From: a virus | Virus genome (UHGV): UHGV-0127207 | DNA: 24,457 nt | Direction: 5' to 3' (one strand) | In this document: piece after piece, positions 4,119-24,143 of the stretch | How the letters are laid out: each line of letters starts with the position of its first letter | Numbering within the stretch: position 1 is the first letter of the stretch | Notes under the pieces: generated by a model | Databases searched by the model: none | What the model saw: the letters and a program-made list of their open reading frames with translations, nothing else | Told to the model about the DNA's origin: nothing | Translations under genes and position numbers: made by a program

Positions 4119-4571
4119 CTAATTTTTCATCAATAAATACTTTAAAAGTAAATCTCTTACTTCATTTTCAGTATGTTCATTTAAACCCAGCAATTTTCGG
4201 GATGGATACTTAATGACTCCCCCCTTTGGACTGACGCGATCGCGCAGACCGTAGTGATGAACACGGGCAATACGCTGTACCTTACCTTCAAACTGTACGC
4301 TGGCAGAATCCGCGCTGGCGGCAGTTCTCAGGTATTTTGTAGTGCGCAGCTTTGCAAACATCTGACGTTTGATGCGCCCCTTCTTGCTGCGTGCTGTTAC
4401 CCTGCGCGGCTCATAACTGCTGCCATCTGGATTGCGCTGCATCCTGATATTCTGCTGCTGTGTCCGGCGCAGTTCCTGCGCCAGCTGGCGCATCATTCGG
4501 CTTCTTGCGGCTGGTTCCAGATTCGCCAGCAAAGCACTCAGCCAGTCGTCCACCTTCTGCAGTTCAGCCAC
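4119..4571 (-). CDS. S: Tail completion protein gpS
   Basis: 150 aa ORF (MAELQKVDDWLSALLANLEPAARSRMMRQLAQELRR...), P2 gpS-like; overlaps R stop. Confidence 0.85.
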   Translation of the reverse strand: MAELQKVDDWLSALLANLEPAARSRMMRQLAQELRRTQQQNIRMQRNPDGSSYEPRRVTARSKKGRIKRQMFAKLRTTKYLRTAASADSASVQFEGKVQRIARVHHYGLRDRVSPKGGVIKYPSRKLLGLNEHTENEVRDLLLKYLLMKN

Positions 4572-5248: not shown

Positions 5249-5519
5249 GTTTCAGTTCCTCGATCCGGTGTTGTCGTTGTCTCAGCAGCGCGCTGGTCTG
5301 TTCTGCTTCGGCATAGAGCCGCGCCTGCTCCCGGTTATTGGTTTCAGCCAGAATGGACAGACTGATCAGCTGGCTATTTTTCTTCGTTAGTTCGTGCGCT
5401 TTACTTTTCAGCGCCGCGCGCTGCGTTTCGATGGTGTGGCTGGCATCAGCCAGCCGCCACATCTGCCAGCCCAGCGACGCCAGTAATAACGCCAGCACAA
5501 CCAGCAGCAACCGGTTCAT
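5091..5519 (-). CDS. lysB: Inner-membrane spanin (LysB/Rz-like)
   Basis: 142 aa; N-terminal hydrophobic segment LLLVVLALLLASLGW followed by charged coiled-coil-like region; contains the embedded lysC start. Confidence 0.8.
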   Translation of the reverse strand: MNRLLLVVLALLLASLGWQMWRLADASHTIETQRAALKSKAHELTKKNSQLISLSILAETNNREQARLYAEAEQTSALLRQRQHRIEELKRENEDLRRWADTPLPADIIRLRERPALTGGAAYRQWLSASDAVSAGAGSAAH

Positions 5520-16646: not shown

Positions 16647-19061
16647 TTAATACAGGTTCCGCCACTTATCATCTTCCTTCAGACGCTGGTTCCGATAGAA
16701 GATACGCAGGCCTGCTCCTGACGGAATACTGCCGCCGCGAAGGAGCAAATCGACTTCTTTCTCGCTGCCATCAAATCCCCTGGACTTCAGTTCATAGACG
16801 AGCTGCTGTCGCTGATGGTCTGTAATTCGCTGTTTGTAGTCTTTACGCCGTTTCGGTTTCACCTGGCGTAACCTTGCAGCCAGTTCCCGGCGCTCTTTTT
16901 TGCTCATACTGTGCAGGTAATCGTGCAACTCCTTGTCATTCATACGGGTAATATCCGTTCTGGAGTCCCCATCAGCTGATTTGTCTTTCCCTTGTTGGTT
17001 TAAATTTTCAGCAAGGGGACAGTTATTGCCACGAGTCCAAGGGGCGCAAGCGCCCTGGTCGGCTACCGCCTCCTGAACGTCAACGGCCTTACGAACCATT
17101 TTCCACTTCACTGCATGAGTGCAGATCTTGCCCTCTGCAATGGGTGACCAGATGCCATAAATACGAATGCCGTGATCGCCATAGGCGGTCGGCTCTTCGT
17201 TGATTTCATAAGCGGTTCTGATAAGGTGATATTTACGGGGAACCAGTACGCCGCCCTGCTTCATGATGTAGGTGGCAAAACAACCAGCATCAGCAGCAGC
17301 CAGGATGGCATCAAGGCGCGGGTCATCCAGTATCGGCGCACCTGCTTTTTTGTCACCCTGTTGCCTTGCCGCCTGACCAGCCAGCAAGCGAAGTTCACGG
17401 TAAGCCTGACGTCCCGGAATACCAAAGAAGCGGAACTGCTGAACACGATGCAGAGACGCCCAGGCATTAACGTATTCGGCGTTATCACGCAGGGATTTAC
17501 CCGTTTCCTTGCTGATCTCGCCAGCCAGACCACGCCCGTCAATGTTCTTACTGATGTATTTCGCGATATAGCTTGTCGGTGTTCCTTTGCGCGGGTTAAT
17601 CAGCTCAGACTTAAAGCGTGGCCCCGTGTTGTTGCCCAGCTCCTCGCGGTCTACACGGATGGCAAACTTACGCAGTAATGCAGTGATGGCGCGGCGGTCT
17701 TTTTTACGCATGAAGCACATGAGATGCCAGTGCACAGTACCGTCATGGTGCGGCTCAGCCACCCGCACGCCATACCAGCGCAACCCGGTTTTGTGCATTG
17801 CCTTACGAAATGCAGCAAACATGCCGACCATATAATCGCTGCTTTGTCTTACCGTCGCATTTGTCCAGGTCGGGTTGGGTCTGCCGTTGTTGAGCGTGGA
17901 ATGGAAACGTGACGGACAGGTGATAGTGTAGAAAACGGCGCAGTCACCGCGCATTTCCGCGATAAGCTCCAGACCTTTAACACAGGCCATCATCTCATTG
18001 CGGCGATGCGCAGGGTTGCTGCTGCTGGCGTTTACCACATCCTCCATGTCCAGCGTGTCGCCGTCTTCGTTCACCAGTTCATGAGAACGGAAAAACTCCA
18101 GCGACTTACGGCGCTGCTCACGTTTATGCATCACGGCTTCATAGCTGACATAGGGAGATGCTTTTTTGCTGACCAGGCAGACAGCACGCAACTGCTCTTC
18201 CCGCCATTCGCAACGCATCTTCCATAATTTCCGATACCACCAGTCGGCGCACAACATACGCGCCAGCGAACCCGGAATGAGTTCATAGGGCACGGGTTTA
18301 CGGCGGTTTCTTTTCCGACGGAGTTGCTCAAACGCAGGTGGGATGACATCCAGACGCAGGGTTTCCGCCGCCACCTTTTCCCATGTCTTGCGGATTTCTT
18401 CTGGCTTAACGTCATCGGTGGCATACAAATCGCCACAAGCTGCCTCAAGGCACATGCTCATATGCGCAGCTACCAGGGTGGACAGGCGTTTCACCTGATC
18501 CTGACTCATTTCAGGCAGGATCAGCAGGCCCTCCAGCCCTTGATGGCTTGCCATAAAACGGAAAGAAGCAGACAGCTGACTGTCACGTACACAATCCAGT
18601 CGCTCCAGACATGGCTTAATCGTCTCACGCAAATAGCGGGAATAAGCCTTTGGCCTGCCCAGGCTGCTGAAGTATTCGATACGTTGCATCAGCGGCTTGC
18701 TGATATGGATGGGCTGGGCGCTGACGTCCGCCAGAATGACCATGTCCGGGTTAAAACGCTGCTGTTCATGCGCTAGCTTTGCCCGGCTAATGAGCTTATC
18801 CTGCTCCATTTCGCGCTGGACAGGATCACGAGATTCATTAAAGAAATAACGCTCCCAGACCTGCTCACTCAGTGCATCGCGGCACAGCTGTTCCTGCTCA
18901 TTATCGGCAGCGTACAGAGTGATCAGGTTTAAAAGTGCAGACTCCGGAGCAACTTCCGCCGGGTCCAGATAAGGGTTAATGGCCTTTTTCGGGCCGTTCC
19001 ATGAAAATGCTGCAGCGGCCTCGTTAAAGCCGCTAGAGTTGCTCATATCGTCATGACTCAT
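16647..19061 (-). CDS. A: Replication initiation protein gpA (rolling-circle nicking endonuclease)
   Basis: 804 aa; P2/186 gpA-like by size and position at the end of the early operon; start overlaps dam stop. Confidence 0.85.
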
Positions 19062-19915
19062 ACACGCACCTCGTACACAGCAGAACTATCCACGCCACAC
19101 GAAGGATCAAATCCCACCCAGCAGCGCGCCCCGGAAACAGCAATGATTTCTGTTGCAGGTTTACTCTCGCCAGCCGACACGCCGATGCTGCGTTTTGCCT
19201 TGATGTAGTGGTGAGTGAAATTTCGATACAGCGAACGGATCAGGGATGTGTCACTGTTAGAAACAATGACTGGATGACCTTCTGATGATCGATATTCAAG
19301 AACAGATGCCAGGTGATACTGGTCATCTTCAGTGAAGCCGTTAGTGTGATAGCCGGAAAACGTACCGTCATAAGGCGGATCGCAATACACCACATCCCCC
19401 ACCTGCAGCATCGCCAGCGTTTCATCAAAGCTGGCGCAGATAAACGTTGCTTGCTGGGCTTTCTCTGCAAATGCGCGAATTTCTTTTTCAGGGAAATACG
19501 GATTTTTATAATTACCGTATGGAATGTTGAAATGCCCGCTCTTGTTATAACGACATAACCCACGGTAACCATGACGATTGAGATACAGGAAATATACCGC
19601 TTTCATGAAATCAGTAATTTCAGTGGAGTAATTAAACTCCTGCCTTATGTTGTAATAAGCCAACTCCCTGTTTGCTTCCTCAAATAAAGCTCTGGCACGA
19701 GATATAAACGCCTCGCAATCAGCAGCAACCTTTTTATAGAGGTTGATTAAATCAGGATTAATATCCGCAACAAGATAGCTGGGGTAATCCGTCTCCATCA
19801 TCACAGCACAGGAACCCGCGAAAGGTTCAACCAGTCGCGGGCCAGCAGGAAGGTGTTTTTTCAGTTCGGACATTACGGCGGTTTTATTTCCCGCCCATTT
19901 CAGGATGGTGCTCAT
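19058..19915 (-). CDS. dam: DNA adenine methyltransferase (Dam-type N6-adenine MTase)
   Basis: ORF 19058..19975; ATG at 19915 gives [11 protein letters not shown]... (Dam-type N-terminal SAM-binding motif) and contains DPPY catalytic motif; coupled to traR-like gene upstream and A downstream. Confidence 0.8.
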
Positions 19916-20803: not shown

Positions 20804-21028
20804 CTATCGTTCTTTGTTCTTACGGTAACGCTCAAGAGGAGATACATTTTTTCGTATCGTCTCTTTAACCTGCTCTCCCCGTAAAAACGTCCCATCCTTT
20901 AACGCGAAAAAGTAACTGCCATCGCCCGACAATGACGGATAGCAACAGAGCAAATCATCTTCAGGTACTGAATAACTCTCCCCTCTGTAACGAAACTGAT
21001 AAACCACTTCACTTTCTGCCGCATACAT
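20804..21028 (-). CDS. Hypothetical early-operon protein
   Basis: 74 aa ORF; overlaps the 3-prime part of ORF 20899..21225 in another frame. Confidence 0.45.
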   Translation of the reverse strand: MYAAESEVVYQFRYRGESYSVPEDDLLCCYPSLSGDGSYFFALKDGTFLRGEQVKETIRKNVSPLERYRKNKER

Positions 21029-21195
21029 TTGGACTTTCTCCGTTTCCTCGTGGTCAATTCAGACAGCAATTCATCTTGTGAATGACATGGATGCCAGCGT
21101 TTTCCATCCTCACCCGTGATCCAGCCGTGACCGTAGTGCATTGCCGGGCTTTGTTTTACCAGCAGCGATGCAAATGATGGTTCTTTCGTCAGCAT
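20899..21195 (-). CDS. Hypothetical protein (conflicts with 20804..21028; at most one frame is likely real across the overlap)
   Basis: ORF 20899..21225 with internal ATG at 21195 (MLTKEPSFASLLVKQSPAMHYGHGWITGEDGKRWHPCH...); immediately downstream of cII. Confidence 0.3.
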   Translation of the reverse strand: MLTKEPSFASLLVKQSPAMHYGHGWITGEDGKRWHPCHSQDELLSELTTRKRRKSKCMRQKVKWFISFVTEGRVIQYLKMICSVAIRHCRAMAVTFSR

Positions 21196-21202
21196 AAGCA
21201 CC

Positions 21203-21721
21203 TCACAGCAAACCGAATGAAGCACCGAGGCCAGTCACGGTATCAACTGCACTCGCCATCGCAGGGTTAGCCTGTAAACGGGCCTGCAATGAAACAGCAG
21301 CCAACGCCATCAGTCGTGTTACAGAGTTAATGCTGCTGATAGCATCACGACGACCTGCACTGGTTTTTACATCGCCAGATACCGCACCTGCAGCAACACG
21401 CCCGATCTCTGCGGTTGCACTCATGACGTAATGTGGCAGTTTCTCTTTTGCCACCTCATTAATTGGTACGCATGGCAGGCAGTGAATCTGTGCCAGAAAA
21501 CCATCTACCAACGTTGAATCTTCAGTCAGATCGGTAAGCAGCCAGATTTCTGGTGCGGTTAATAAATGAGGTTGAGCTGGGTTCAGCTTGTTCCGCAGAA
21601 TCTGCACATTCATGCCCGCACGTTCTGCCAGTTGCACCAGATTGTGGCGCAGTGCGAATGCACGACAGGCTTCATCAAAATGTGGATGTTTGGAAACTTG
21701 GTAATCAAACATGGTTTTCAA
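21203..21721 (-). CDS. cII: 186-type CII lysogeny-establishment regulator (Phage_CP76 family)
   Basis: 172 aa; closely resembles what I recall of the CII/CP76 proteins of 186-like prophages ([11 protein letters not shown]...[10 protein letters not shown]...LRNKLNP...); sits downstream of apl on the lytic-side operon. Confidence 0.75.
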
Positions 21722-21776
21722 CTCCGAACTTATCGCAAAATCGAACTCAGCGTCTTATTGCGAAAATAGACGTCTA

Positions 21777-21980
21777 TTAAGCAGACAAAGCATCAACAGT
21801 CAGAGCAGCCAGGTTAATCATTACCTTTTCACGTTTTTTGTCTTTACGAAGACGATGACGAGGTAGTCGGCCATCAGCCAACATGTCGTTAATCGTATCA
21901 ATAGAAAGGCCAGTCAGTTCGCTATAACGTTCGATTGTGACATGTGGTGTATTCAGAGTAATTGAAATGTTAGGTGTCAT
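21777..21980 (-). CDS. Apl/Cox-like excisionase and transcriptional regulator (small HTH protein)
   Basis: 67 aa; HTH-like segment [27 protein letters not shown]; first gene of the lytic-side operon, divergent from cI; RBS AAGGA. Confidence 0.7.
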
Positions 21981-22045
21981 AAGGCAACATTCCTTCTAGA
22001 TATGGCTTGTGGCGAGCCGTTGTTTGTCGTGATTAGTAGTGAAGG

Positions 22046-22119
22046 CTCCAAAAGAACACTTCTGGTTCAACTTTAAGATCGCTTTTGGAATCTGTCAACG
22101 AATTTTGGATTTCTTTGGA
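22046..22119. promoter_or_regulatory. Immunity switch region with repeated TTTTGGA-type motifs (candidate CI operators, convergent pR/pL arrangement)
   Basis: CCAAAAG at 22047-22053 inverted relative to CTTTTGG at 22082-22088; direct copies (T/C)TTTGGA at 22083, 22103 and 22113; lies between the divergent apl and cI genes. Confidence 0.4.
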
Positions 22120-22125
22120 GGACTT

Positions 22126-22695
22126 GTGGATTTCAATAGCGGCGGTAAGAAAGCCATAGAACGTTTAGTTGAAGCATATGGGTTCGGTACCCGTCAGGCT
22201 CTCTGTGATCATTTAGGTGTTTCTAAGAGCACCATGGCAACGCGCTATATGCGTGATATTTTTCCAGCAGATTGGGTAATCCAGTGCGCCCTTGAAACGG
22301 GCACCTCGCTTAATTGGCTAACAACAGGGCATGGTTCAAAGCAAGCATCAGCAAATACAAATACTATAGAAGTAGAAAAATATTTATTGTCTGATGGAGC
22401 ATTGCAGAAAGACGGTTTTTATATTTTTGATAAGGGATTTCTACCCTCTACGTTTAAAAAACCTTTTGTCATCACAGATAACAATTCTGAATTTATTTGT
22501 GATAAAGAATTTGATGATATACGTGATGGTAAATGGGTAATAAGTATTGATGGCGAAATAACGATCCGTGACATTACTCGTTTACCCGGTGGAAGAATCT
22601 TCGTCGAGGGTGGAAACAGAGCCTTCGAATGCAAGATAGAAGACATTGAAATAATTGGTAAAATTATAAGTTTAACAGTCAAGTATGTTAAATAG
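22126..22695 (+). CDS. cI: CI immunity repressor (186-type, N-terminal HTH)
   Basis: ORF 22039..22695; GTG at 22126 preceded by GGAGGA gives about 189 aa; HTH region GTRQALCDHLGVSKSTMATRYMRD; start uncertain (SD spacing short). Confidence 0.75.
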   Translation: MDFNSGGKKAIERLVEAYGFGTRQALCDHLGVSKSTMATRYMRDIFPADWVIQCALETGTSLNWLTTGHGSKQASANTNTIEVEKYLLSDGALQKDGFYIFDKGFLPSTFKKPFVITDNNSEFICDKEFDDIRDGKWVISIDGEITIRDITRLPGGRIFVEGGNRAFECKIEDIEIIGKIISLTVKYVK

Positions 22696-22710
22696 TACCG
22701 GGAGGAAACT

Positions 22711-22902
22711 ATGCTTGGTAAGGTATTTTTTGTGGTTTTGTCATGTTCTTTGTTATTAAACCCACTAACTACCTATGCTAGAAATTATCCCTGCTCAGGG
22801 AAAAAGGGAGGTGTTTCTCACTGTACCTCAGATGGCAAATTCGTTTGCAATGATGGAACTATTAGTAAATCCAAAAAAATCTGTACTAAAAACTCACGAT
22901 AA
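22711..22902 (+). CDS. Small secreted cysteine-rich protein (moron in the cI-int operon)
   Basis: 63 aa; strong RBS GGGAGGAAACT-ATG; N-terminal signal peptide [23 protein letters not shown]; mature part basic with four Cys; A+T-rich. Confidence 0.55.
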
Positions 22903-23090
22903 CTTTTGCTTTTATATCTGCGTCTAAAATAAAAATGAGCCGCAGGTTAACCGCAAAAGTTACATGCTCACATAGCAAAAAGAATAGCCAACTTCATGAT
23001 GGCTTCAGTGAGATGTATGGTCGTAGGATTTCATACATTGACACTGGTTATACATACAGTAAAAATGCTCTCTACTGGAGGGCATTTTTT

Positions 23091-24143
23091 ATGGCAGTAC
23101 GAAAACTCACCACAGGGAAATGGCTTTGCGAATGTTACCCCGCCGGACGTAGTGGGCGTCGTGTGCGTAAACAATTCGCCACCAAAGGCGAAGCTCTGGC
23201 TTTTGAGCGCCACACGATGGAAGAAACCGAAGCAAAGCCCTGGCTGGGTGAATCAGTGGATCGTCGAACACTGAAAGACGTAGTTGAGCTATGGTTCAAA
23301 CTACATGGTAAATCTCTGACAGCTGGGCAGCATGTCTATGACAAATTGCTGTTGATGGTTGACGCTCTGGGTAATCCTCTTGCAACCGATCTCACCTCTA
23401 AAATGTTTGCCCACTATCGAGATAAACGCCTGACAGGCGAGATCTACTTCAGCGAGAAATGGAAGAAAGGAGCAAGCCCGGTCACCATTAACCTGGAGCA
23501 AAGCTATCTAAGTAGTGTTTTTAGCGAACTATCCCGTCTGGGCGAATGGTCGTATCCGAACCCACTGGAGAACATGCGAAAATTCACCATCGCAGAAAAA
23601 GAGATGGCATGGCTTACCCATGAGCAGATTGTTGAATTGCTGGCTGATTGCAAACGTCAGGACCCAATTCTGGCACTGGTAGTTAAGATATGCTTAAGCA
23701 CAGGCGCACGCTGGCGTGAAGCCGTAAATCTTACCCGCTCACAGGTGACCAAATACCGAATTACCTTTGTCAGAACGAAGGGGAAGAAAAACAGAAGCAT
23801 CCCTATCAGTAAAGAGCTTTACGAAGAGATCATGGCGCTTGATGGGTTCAATTTCTTTACAGACTACTATTTTCAATTTTTATCCGTGATGGAAAAAACG
23901 TCTATCGTGCTCCCTCGCGGTCAACTCACACACGTTCTGCGCCATACGTTTGCGGCGCACTTCATGATGTCGGGTGGAAACATTCTCGCCTTACAAAAAA
24001 TTCTCGGACACCACGATATAAAAATGACTATGCGTTACGCACATCTGGCACCAGATCATCTGGAAACGGCGCTCCGTTTCAATCCTCTGGCAACGCTGCC
24101 AAGTGGCGACAAAGTGGCGGCAGCGGTTGGCATTACCCCGTAA
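23091..24143 (+). CDS. int: Tyrosine integrase (P2/186 family)
   Basis: ORF 22935..24143; ATG at 23091 (MAVRKLTTGKWLCECYPAGR...) taken as start; C-terminal catalytic region HVLRHTFAAHFMMSGGNILALQKILGHHDIKMTMRYAHLAPDHL with catalytic Tyr in MRYAHL. Confidence 0.9.
   Translation: MAVRKLTTGKWLCECYPAGRSGRRVRKQFATKGEALAFERHTMEETEAKPWLGESVDRRTLKDVVELWFKLHGKSLTAGQHVYDKLLLMVDALGNPLATDLTSKMFAHYRDKRLTGEIYFSEKWKKGASPVTINLEQSYLSSVFSELSRLGEWSYPNPLENMRKFTIAEKEMAWLTHEQIVELLADCKRQDPILALVVKICLSTGARWREAVNLTRSQVTKYRITFVRTKGKKNRSIPISKELYEEIMALDGFNFFTDYYFQFLSVMEKTSIVLPRGQLTHVLRHTFAAHFMMSGGNILALQKILGHHDIKMTMRYAHLAPDHLETALRFNPLATLPSGDKVAAAVGITP

Follow-up and report, generated by a model that had tools for sequence, protein, structure and literature searches.

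Putative CI operators over the lytic promoter of a 186-type lysis/lysogeny switch in an Escherichia coli prophage, a likely new immunity class

The closest described counterpart of the locus analyzed here is the lysis/lysogeny switch of bacteriophage 186. The 186 CI repressor assembles into a 14-mer wheel, with operator DNA wrapped around it. In the 186 GenBank record, CI sites extend from the cI ATG over the lytic promoter pR, whose -35 element is 15 nt away from the start of cI; seven Apl sites are located between pR and the lysogenic promoter pL, and the -10 element of pL lies just outside apl, with the -35 element inside the gene. CI operators at 186 pR are spaced by two helical turns (PMC3675496). 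The excisionase-repressors of 186- and P2-like phages bind short direct repeats in the switch region, and RDF arrays have repeats at 10-11 bp (PMC7498355). Switches of the P2 C/Cox type resemble the locus described below in having face-to-face early promoters and a Cox-like excisionase-repressor as the product of the first lytic gene (PMC3448106). They differ from it in that P2 lacks cII and its repressor, C, is a small, unrelated protein that recognizes two direct repeats, whereas here a two-domain CI and a CII are encoded. Another related prophage, that of strain CFT073 (PhiECO3), occupies the same attachment site as ours and has a 145-nt spacer and a CI of a different class (PMC3448106).

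The stretch of DNA that we analyzed (24,457 nt in total, hereafter the window) carries a 186-like (Peduoviridae) E. coli prophage, in which the order of int, cI, cII and a Cox/Apl-like gene is that of 186 (int-cI and apl-cII-fil). Near the switch, the minus strand carries cII (PF06892, CP76 family, E 3.4e-42) and a gene of 67 codons (21777-21980), the first of the lytic operon, while the CI repressor gene, a 63-aa ORF and the integrase gene are on the plus strand. The 67-aa product, labeled a hypothetical protein in RefSeq, belongs to phrog_575 ("Cox-like excisionase and repressor", E 1e-29); its identity to 186 Apl (87 aa) is 30%, with the N-terminal HTH region in common. CI, which is 32% identical to its 186 counterpart, is likewise a two-domain protein with matches to Phage_CI_repr (the HTH domain, E 3.3e-31) and Phage_CI_C (E 4.7e-29), and its C-terminal domain matches the 14-mer domain of PDB 2FKD (E 1.1e-14). 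These phrog_575 and Pfam matches confirm the flanking genes, apl on the minus and cI on the plus strand, as they had been named from the sequence in the original prediction. Against Peptidase S24 (PF00717), a trait of lambda-type CI/LexA proteins, CI scored 16.1 bits (E 0.0091), under the 23.3-bit cut-off. The P2-type traits, a C repressor of ~99 aa and the lack of cII, were not found either: the repressor is a 189-aa protein of the CI type and a CII gene is present.

Positions 21700-22800 recur at 100% identity in several complete E. coli chromosomes, and among 5,426 complete genomes of this species, ~150 contain at least 80% of the switch region. The prophage of strain 1283 sits between ybjL and rcdA; that of 186 is found in a tRNA-Ile gene. 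A megablast search of the switch against deposited phage genomes gave no match, and the closest deposited phage by tblastn is vB_EcoM-813R9 (ON470620; 813R9 below), with a CI that is 55-58% identical. An Rfam search of positions 21500-22900 returned no meaningful match. Relatives were collected from E. coli genomes, by tblastn and by scanning GTDB for the CI N-terminal domain; related forms of the switch are present in Scandinavium, Silvania, Enterobacter, Citrobacter and Kosakonia. For measuring conservation, we used ten sequences (from E. coli and these five genera) that have the CI DNA-binding domain of the window.

The lytic promoter pR, on the minus strand, has a -35 element TTGACA (22098-22093), a 17-nt spacer and a -10 element TAAAGT (22075-22070), with a predicted start at ~22063. 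It is the sole sigma-70-like match within 21700-22400 (score 10/12) and its position is equivalent to that of annotated 186 pR. Of 20 relatives scanned, 18 have a -35-like hexamer, mostly TTGAC-, at a distance of 25-36 nt from the cI start. In L002 and L030, the hexamer overlaps the start as annotated, and L014 and L023 show a weak -10 match. The putative lysogenic promoter pL, on the plus strand, consists of TTGAAA (21962-21967), a 17-nt spacer and CAACAT (21985-21990), with transcription expected to start at ~21997. Its geometry is that of annotated 186 pL (TTGCGA-17-CATGAT): in both, the -35 element lies within apl, whose start codon is at positions 11-13 of the spacer. Seventeen of the 20 relatives have both pL hexamers; in L015, L016 and L024 the -35 element is kept and the -10 element is different.

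As judged from the hexamers, pR and pL are face-to-face and their start sites are separated by ~64 bp; the distance is 41-65 bp in most of the 20 relatives and 62 bp in 186. The spacer between cI and apl is 145 nt long here versus 129 nt in 186. The original prediction had suggested a convergent-promoter immunity switch and alignment to the 186 pR/pL region as a check. The suggestion agrees well with our results, since hexamers and geometry match the 186 annotation and are kept in relatives, and the alignment reveals the same layout in the window.

The same prediction had listed repeated motifs between apl and cI, all of which are in place. The inverted pair consists of CCAAAAG (22048-22054) and CTTTTGG (22082-22088), which can be extended to a perfect 8-nt inverted pair, TCCAAAAG at 22047-22054 and CTTTTGGA at 22082-22089. 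The three direct copies of (T/C)TTTGGA are TTTTGGA at 22083-22089, TTTTGGA at 22103-22109 and CTTTGGA at 22113-22119. GGAGGA is located at 22117-22122, and the two in-frame GTG codons are at 22039 and 22126. YTTTGGA has eight matches in the 24.5-kb window, four of which fall within 73 nt. When windows were shuffled with a Markov model, some hexamer with four non-overlapping copies in 75 nt was found in 31 of 200 of them. By count alone, the clustering is thus not significant window-wide and is only suggestive, and because clusters of this kind arise so often in shuffles, support for the repeats has to come from conservation.

We consider three elements of 16 bp as putative CI operators. O_a (22044-22059, minus strand), with TCCAAAAG at 22047-22054 as its core, is inverted relative to O_b and would cover positions ~+4 to +20 of the pR transcript. 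O_b (GATCGCTTTTGGAATC, 22077-22092, plus strand) fills the pR spacer, which is where the central CI operator of 186 is found, and contains a GATC site. O_c (GATTTCTTTGGAGGAC, 22108-22123, plus strand) lies upstream of the pR -35 element and overlaps the cI Shine-Dalgarno sequence GGAGGA. The TTGGA/TCCAA cores of the three elements (22047-22051, 22085-22089 and 22115-22119) place them ~30 bp apart, with 30 bp between the cores of O_b and O_c. The dyad symmetry of each element is weak. Among the ten sequences with the same CI DNA-binding domain, one of eight columns varies in O_a, none of 16 in O_b and two of nine in the O_c core; of the latter, 22117, within TTGGA, changes in L021 only, and 22113 is either C or T. 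A block of 29 nt around O_b (22067-22095) is invariant. The middle TTTTGGA copy (22103-22109, plus strand), which overlaps the GAT left arm of O_c, is not conserved: it varies at four of seven columns and reads TTTTAGA, TTTAGA, TTCAGA or TTAAGA in relatives whose CI HTH region is identical. Over the whole 87 nt that precede 22126, 23% of columns vary, compared with 45% in adjacent cI coding sequence (Fisher p = 4e-4).

Two other arrangements of the repeats were considered and rejected. The palindrome CCAAAAG-AACA-CTTCTGG (22048-22065) was discarded because its right arm is not kept, being CTTCGAG or CTTCGGG in relatives. A 21-bp series composed of TTTTGGA at 22083, TTTTGGA at 22103 and TTGTGGA at 22124 was discarded as the main register since the copy at 22103 varies and that at 22124 is confounded by the start and Asp codons.

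Conservation of this kind could also have a trivial origin, with the repeats being a by-product of an AT-rich promoter region in which pR, the cI ribosome-binding site and the pL leader are what is maintained. The shuffles, 15% of which contain a four-copy hexamer cluster somewhere in the window, agree with such an origin, as do the unconserved middle copy and the weak dyad symmetry; moreover, conservation of O_c, which overlaps GGAGGA, could stem from the Shine-Dalgarno sequence, and that of O_b, which fills the pR spacer, from constraints on the promoter spacer. However, promoter spacers and leaders are not normally invariant over 16 nt beside coding sequence that varies at 45% of columns. 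O_a and O_b also change together from one immunity class to another: the pair is TCCAAAAG/CTTTTGGA here, TCCCAAAT/CTTTGGGA in L018 and L019 and TCCCAAAG/CTTTAGGGA in L014. Further, three related elements are present at the same three positions in every relative, regardless of their sequence. Finally, two Brenneria loci (L015 and L016), whose spacers are otherwise unalignable with that of the window, carry the exact 12-mer GCTTTTGGAATC, in three copies in L015 and in two copies plus a near-copy in L016, 30 and 28 bp apart. These copies lie downstream of the pR -10 element, within the spacer and immediately ahead of the ATG, which matches the positions of the elements in the window; the counterpart of O_c is a perfect GATTGCTTTTGGAATC directly before the ATG. 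We therefore regard a by-product origin of the repeats as rather improbable.

The original prediction left undecided whether the repeats are operators of CI or of Apl. An assignment to Apl would fit the fact that excisionase-repressors of 186- and P2-like phages bind short direct repeats in their switches (PMC7498355), and three of the four copies are indeed direct repeats, spaced by 20 and 10 bp. The conserved copies are, however, ~30 bp apart, with one inverted, unlike the 10-11-bp RDF arrays, and they are located over pR, where CI sites lie in 186, rather than between the promoters. There are no YTTTGGA copies between int and the host junction (att). The two Brenneria loci encode an unrelated 81-aa Apl yet retain the motif, together with a nearly identical CI recognition region (SKSTLATRYMRDIFPSDW vs SKSTMATRYMRDIFPADW). 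Conversely, TTTTGGA is absent from the switches of 813R9 (Apl 96% identical), H15 and CFT073, which share the Apl family and have other CIs. At the same places, these three have other repeats, GTACCCAATTGGGTAC or CTTCACA...GGAGAAT.

The 813R9, H15 and CFT073 prophages have much in common with that of the window: the rcdA attachment site, pL, the GGCTTGTGG(C/T)GAG(C/T)C element, the position of pR and GATCGC in its spacer. They differ in CI, which is 55% identical in 813R9 and has two tandem HTH domains in H15 and CFT073, and in the repeats, and are presumably heteroimmune to the window prophage. Judging by these comparisons, the TTTTGGA motif is one that follows the CI DNA-binding domain and not Apl. 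It is very unlikely that the repeats are operators of a Cox-like Apl, and the CI half of the original assignment is the one that agrees with the conserved copies, the Brenneria loci and the co-variation of O_a and O_b; the middle copy at 22103, being unconserved, drops out of it. O_a, O_b and O_c are most likely CI operators of a new immunity class.

The correspondence between repeat and recognition helix is not complete. L017, L020, L022 and L023 have the helix-3 residues of the Brenneria repressors, yet their repeat, TTCAC-N3-GTGAAATC, is different. Since these four share helix 3 and not the repeat, CI specificity must require residues outside the compared helix; residues such as those at the end of helix 2 and the one after RD may help to set it.

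For Apl, a better candidate is the stretch between the two promoters, which is where the seven Apl sites of 186 lie (PMC7498355). Here, GGCTTGTGGCGAGCC is followed by GT(G/T)(G/A) repeats (22004-22045, plus strand), namely GTGG, GTTG, GTGA and GTGA at 22009, 22019, 22029 and 22039, with a spacing of exactly 10 bp. The element is kept in loci with this type of Apl, including heteroimmune 813R9, H15 and CFT073, and four relatives with a similar Apl have no GGCTTGTGG element and keep GTG repeats at ~10-bp spacing. On the att side, GTGGCGA, GTGGCGG and GGTTGGC are found 11 bp apart at 24103-24131, with the GTGGCG(A/G) pair (24103 and 24114) at the 3' end of int, though the motif is short and GTGGCGR has 17 copies in the window. 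We tentatively propose that the 22004-22045 stretch probably holds the Apl sites, an assignment that is a weak one.

A hairpin at 22002-22020, which had been flagged as terminator-like, was rejected as an RNA structure: the stem is of 4 bp, changes in L021 and L013 are uncompensated and 813R9 has no T-rich tail. The region is more likely a DNA site.

We also searched for distal CI sites like FL and FR, which in 186 are located ~300 bp to either side. No copy of the motif was found at the equivalent positions, and within 1.5 kb on either side, no extra copy is conserved except for one TTTGGA, 437 nt upstream of the cI start; the distal sites of 186 may themselves differ in sequence from those at pR. 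This copy, the sole positionally conserved one, was rejected as an FL/FR-like site because it is part of a CII-binding inverted repeat common to 186, ATGTTTG-N13-CAAACAT (21686-21712, plus strand). The repeat, located at the cII start (the pE activation site), is nearly identical to part of the annotated 186 CII site and is conserved whatever the CI class, and its TTTGGA is not a CI site. The conserved ATCGCAAAATCGAAC that comes after it does not track the CI class either. The late-activator promoter pB of the prophage contains GCAA(A)ATGGA-like repeats and no YTTTGGA. This promoter is nearly identical in strain 1409, which has the same CI DNA-binding domain, and in heteroimmune H15, with a different CI, and thus cannot discriminate between CI classes; the 813R9 and L004 prophages have no late region.

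In the ORF track, cI opens at GTG 22039, which falls within the last GT(G/T)(G/A) repeat. Comparative evidence indicates that cI starts at GTG 22126 and not at 22039, and encodes a protein of 189 aa (22126-22695, plus strand). RefSeq places the start of this CDS (WP_001346406.1) at 22126, and the homologous position is GTG, TTG or ATG in 20 of 21 relatives. Among those from E. coli, it is GTG in L006 and L007, ATG in L004 (90% identical DNA) and TTG in L005 (84%); among the 17 from other genera, found via the CI N-terminal domain, it is GTG in two, TTG in four and ATG in ten, the exception being L024, whose alignment begins only at residue 4. Residues 10-183 of the 189-aa protein align to residues 10-184 of 186 CI (PDB 2FJR, E 1.5e-31), and the Pfam HTH domain begins at residue 10, which would be residue 39 of the long form.

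A start at 22039, used exclusively or additionally, would lengthen the repressor to 218 aa by adding 29 residues at its N-terminus. No stop interrupts the frame after 22039 in the window or in several relatives that are 84-99% identical, both candidate starts would be on the predicted pL transcript, and RefSeq takes the long form in strain 1409. Against this, a search for a Shine-Dalgarno sequence before 22039 found none, while GGAGGA precedes GTG 22126. A 1-nt deletion between the two GTG codons shifts 22039 out of frame in L004, and the extension is interrupted by in-frame stops in L011 and L021. In L011, L015, L016, L017, L020, L021 and L023, among which are the more distant relatives, the frame is stopped 3-57 nt upstream of the conserved start, with no alternative start. 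As can be seen from the ten-sequence set, variable columns are distributed over the three codon positions as 8/5/7 in the 87 nt before 22126 and as 22/13/59 in the 210 nt after it, and nonsynonymous codon changes predominate upstream and synonymous ones downstream. The extension does not resemble the N-termini of other CI proteins. A long repressor is thus very improbable, and the annotation in strain 1409 is probably an over-extension. We consider the 29 codons at 22039-22125 (plus strand) to be noncoding regulatory DNA.

The start codon, which had been called ambiguous, is not really so, given that RefSeq already has it at 22126 for this very sequence. The preference of the original prediction for GTG 22126 after GGAGGA, with a 186-like length, turned out to be correct. 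Its other argument, that a start at 22039 would place coding sequence over the repeats, is weak, and invalid in itself, because the sole available (and annotated) cI start of 813R9 overlaps the pR -35 element and 186 CI sites abut the ATG. The case for 22126 is therefore the comparative one and does not derive from repeat overlap.

Taken together, positions 21981-22125 are, with good though not full confidence, the operator-promoter region of a heteroimmune 186-type lysis/lysogeny switch, with CI operators over pR and cI beginning at GTG 22126. How such a switch would work is modeled on 186. Transcription from pR would proceed leftward into apl-cII and that from pL rightward into cI-int; because the promoters are arranged face-to-face, ~64 bp apart, pR activity would interfere with pL. 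The 189-aa CI, made from GTG 22126 behind GGAGGA, would bind three ~16-bp elements, of which TTTTGGA is the best-conserved arm: O_a at the start of pR, O_b within its spacer and O_c upstream of its -35 element. Occupancy of these operators would shut off pR, and relief of convergent transcription would then favor pL and, hence, the synthesis of CI itself, as in 186.

As in 186, the repeated elements cover pR from beside the cI start. The differences from 186 concern the operators themselves. Their arm is TTTTGGA, compared with the ATTCAC...GTGAAT and CCCAATTGAGAG types in 186; they are weakly dyad-symmetric, whereas the FL, FR and pB sites of 186 are clear palindromes (ATTCAC-N5-GTGAAT), and no sites of the FL, FR or pB type were recognized in the window. 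The putative operators are ~30 bp (about three helical turns) apart here versus 21 bp in 186, and one is inverted. GATC, absent from the pR spacer of 186, is present in that of the window, and this site in O_b is kept across nearly all immunity classes of these Dam-encoding prophages. The ~30-bp spacing with an inverted proximal site and the GATC are the only points that we find mildly unusual. One may speculate that they reflect a nucleoprotein geometry different from that of 186, with operators three helical turns apart and the promoter-proximal one inverted, combined with GATC-dependent methylation sensitivity of pR or of CI binding. This we hold to be a doubtful possibility. If true, the 30-bp inverted geometry would imply either that DNA wraps differently on the CI oligomer or that the oligomer itself is different, and adenine methylation at the GATC could affect pR or the binding of CI.

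For annotation, the practical outcome is a cI start at 22126 and a regulatory 29-codon extension that, at least in RefSeq strain 1409, is still treated as coding. The result is not a surprising one and leaves the understanding of how the switch works unchanged. It provides a prediction of operators, O_a, O_b and O_c, for an uncharacterized immunity class, which may be useful for predicting heteroimmunity between prophages. More generally, comparison of the loci shows 186-type switches as systems that keep their promoter geometry while swapping CI-operator and Apl-operator modules independently of each other.

Two elements that resemble each other, TTATCGCAAAATCGAAC (21730-21746) and TTATTGCGAAAATAGAC (21756-21772), lie within 21730-21785, between the start of cII and the stop codon of apl, the gene of the Cox-like excisionase-repressor. 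The second of them is bracketed by the inverted repeat CGTCT/AGACG. Since TTATCGCAAAATCGAAC is kept across CI classes, it is more likely, judging from this conservation, to be part of pE, the promoter with a CII-binding repeat at the cII start, or of the apl-cII junction than a binding site of the CI repressor.

Repeats similar to the GTGGCGA of the switch (22009-22015) were also found at the 3′ end of int, adjoining the host junction, where GTGGCGA, GTGGCGG and GGTTGGC are spaced by 11 bp (24103-24131). These repeats are possible Apl sites at att on sequence grounds, with the heptamer being common (17 copies in the window). The cluster ranked first in the k-mer cluster scan, four copies of GCCAGC in ca. 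75 nt (5437-5510), is located within a coding region and probably reflects repeated codons or a repeated peptide.

Besides cI, further genes are too long in the mechanical ORF list compared to RefSeq. The int gene (22935-24143, 402 aa in the list) starts at 23091 in RefSeq and codes for 350 aa; cII (21203-21721), listed with a TTG start at 21721, starts in RefSeq with the ATG at 21712, yielding a protein of 169 aa, as in coliphage 186; and fil (20899-21225) ends at 21195. Between cI and int, there is a 63-aa ORF (22711-22902; phrog_6000) with a hydrophobic N-terminus, named “YdcA family” in some RefSeq records. Its position is moron-like; in relatives, the site holds a gene for a KAP-family P-loop NTPase or different cargo.

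The prophages of E. coli H15 and CFT073 occupy the same rcdA-adjacent attachment site as the window prophage. Their CI proteins, of 313 aa (L030, 2666-3607) and 289 aa (L031, 3935-4804), contain two tandem CI-type N-terminal HTH domains followed by a single C-terminal domain.

In the window prophage, the ogr/B-like late activator has a TTTGCA-16-TATCAT promoter surrounded by three GCAA(A)ATGG(A/T) copies (4174-4263 of the separately numbered locus L026), and this region is near-identical among prophages whose CI proteins differ. At the lytic promoter pR, GATC(G/A)C is retained at the spacer position in nearly all relatives, regardless of CI class and operator sequence. In the window prophage, the GATC (22077-22080) forms part of the left arm of the inferred CI operator O_b; in contrast, the pR of 186 lacks it. 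Among the window prophage's own genes is one for a Dam-type DNA adenine methylase (19058-19915). The pR-spacer GATC could simply represent a common operator arm; alternatively, it could have been kept for a methylation-sensitive promoter or operator function.
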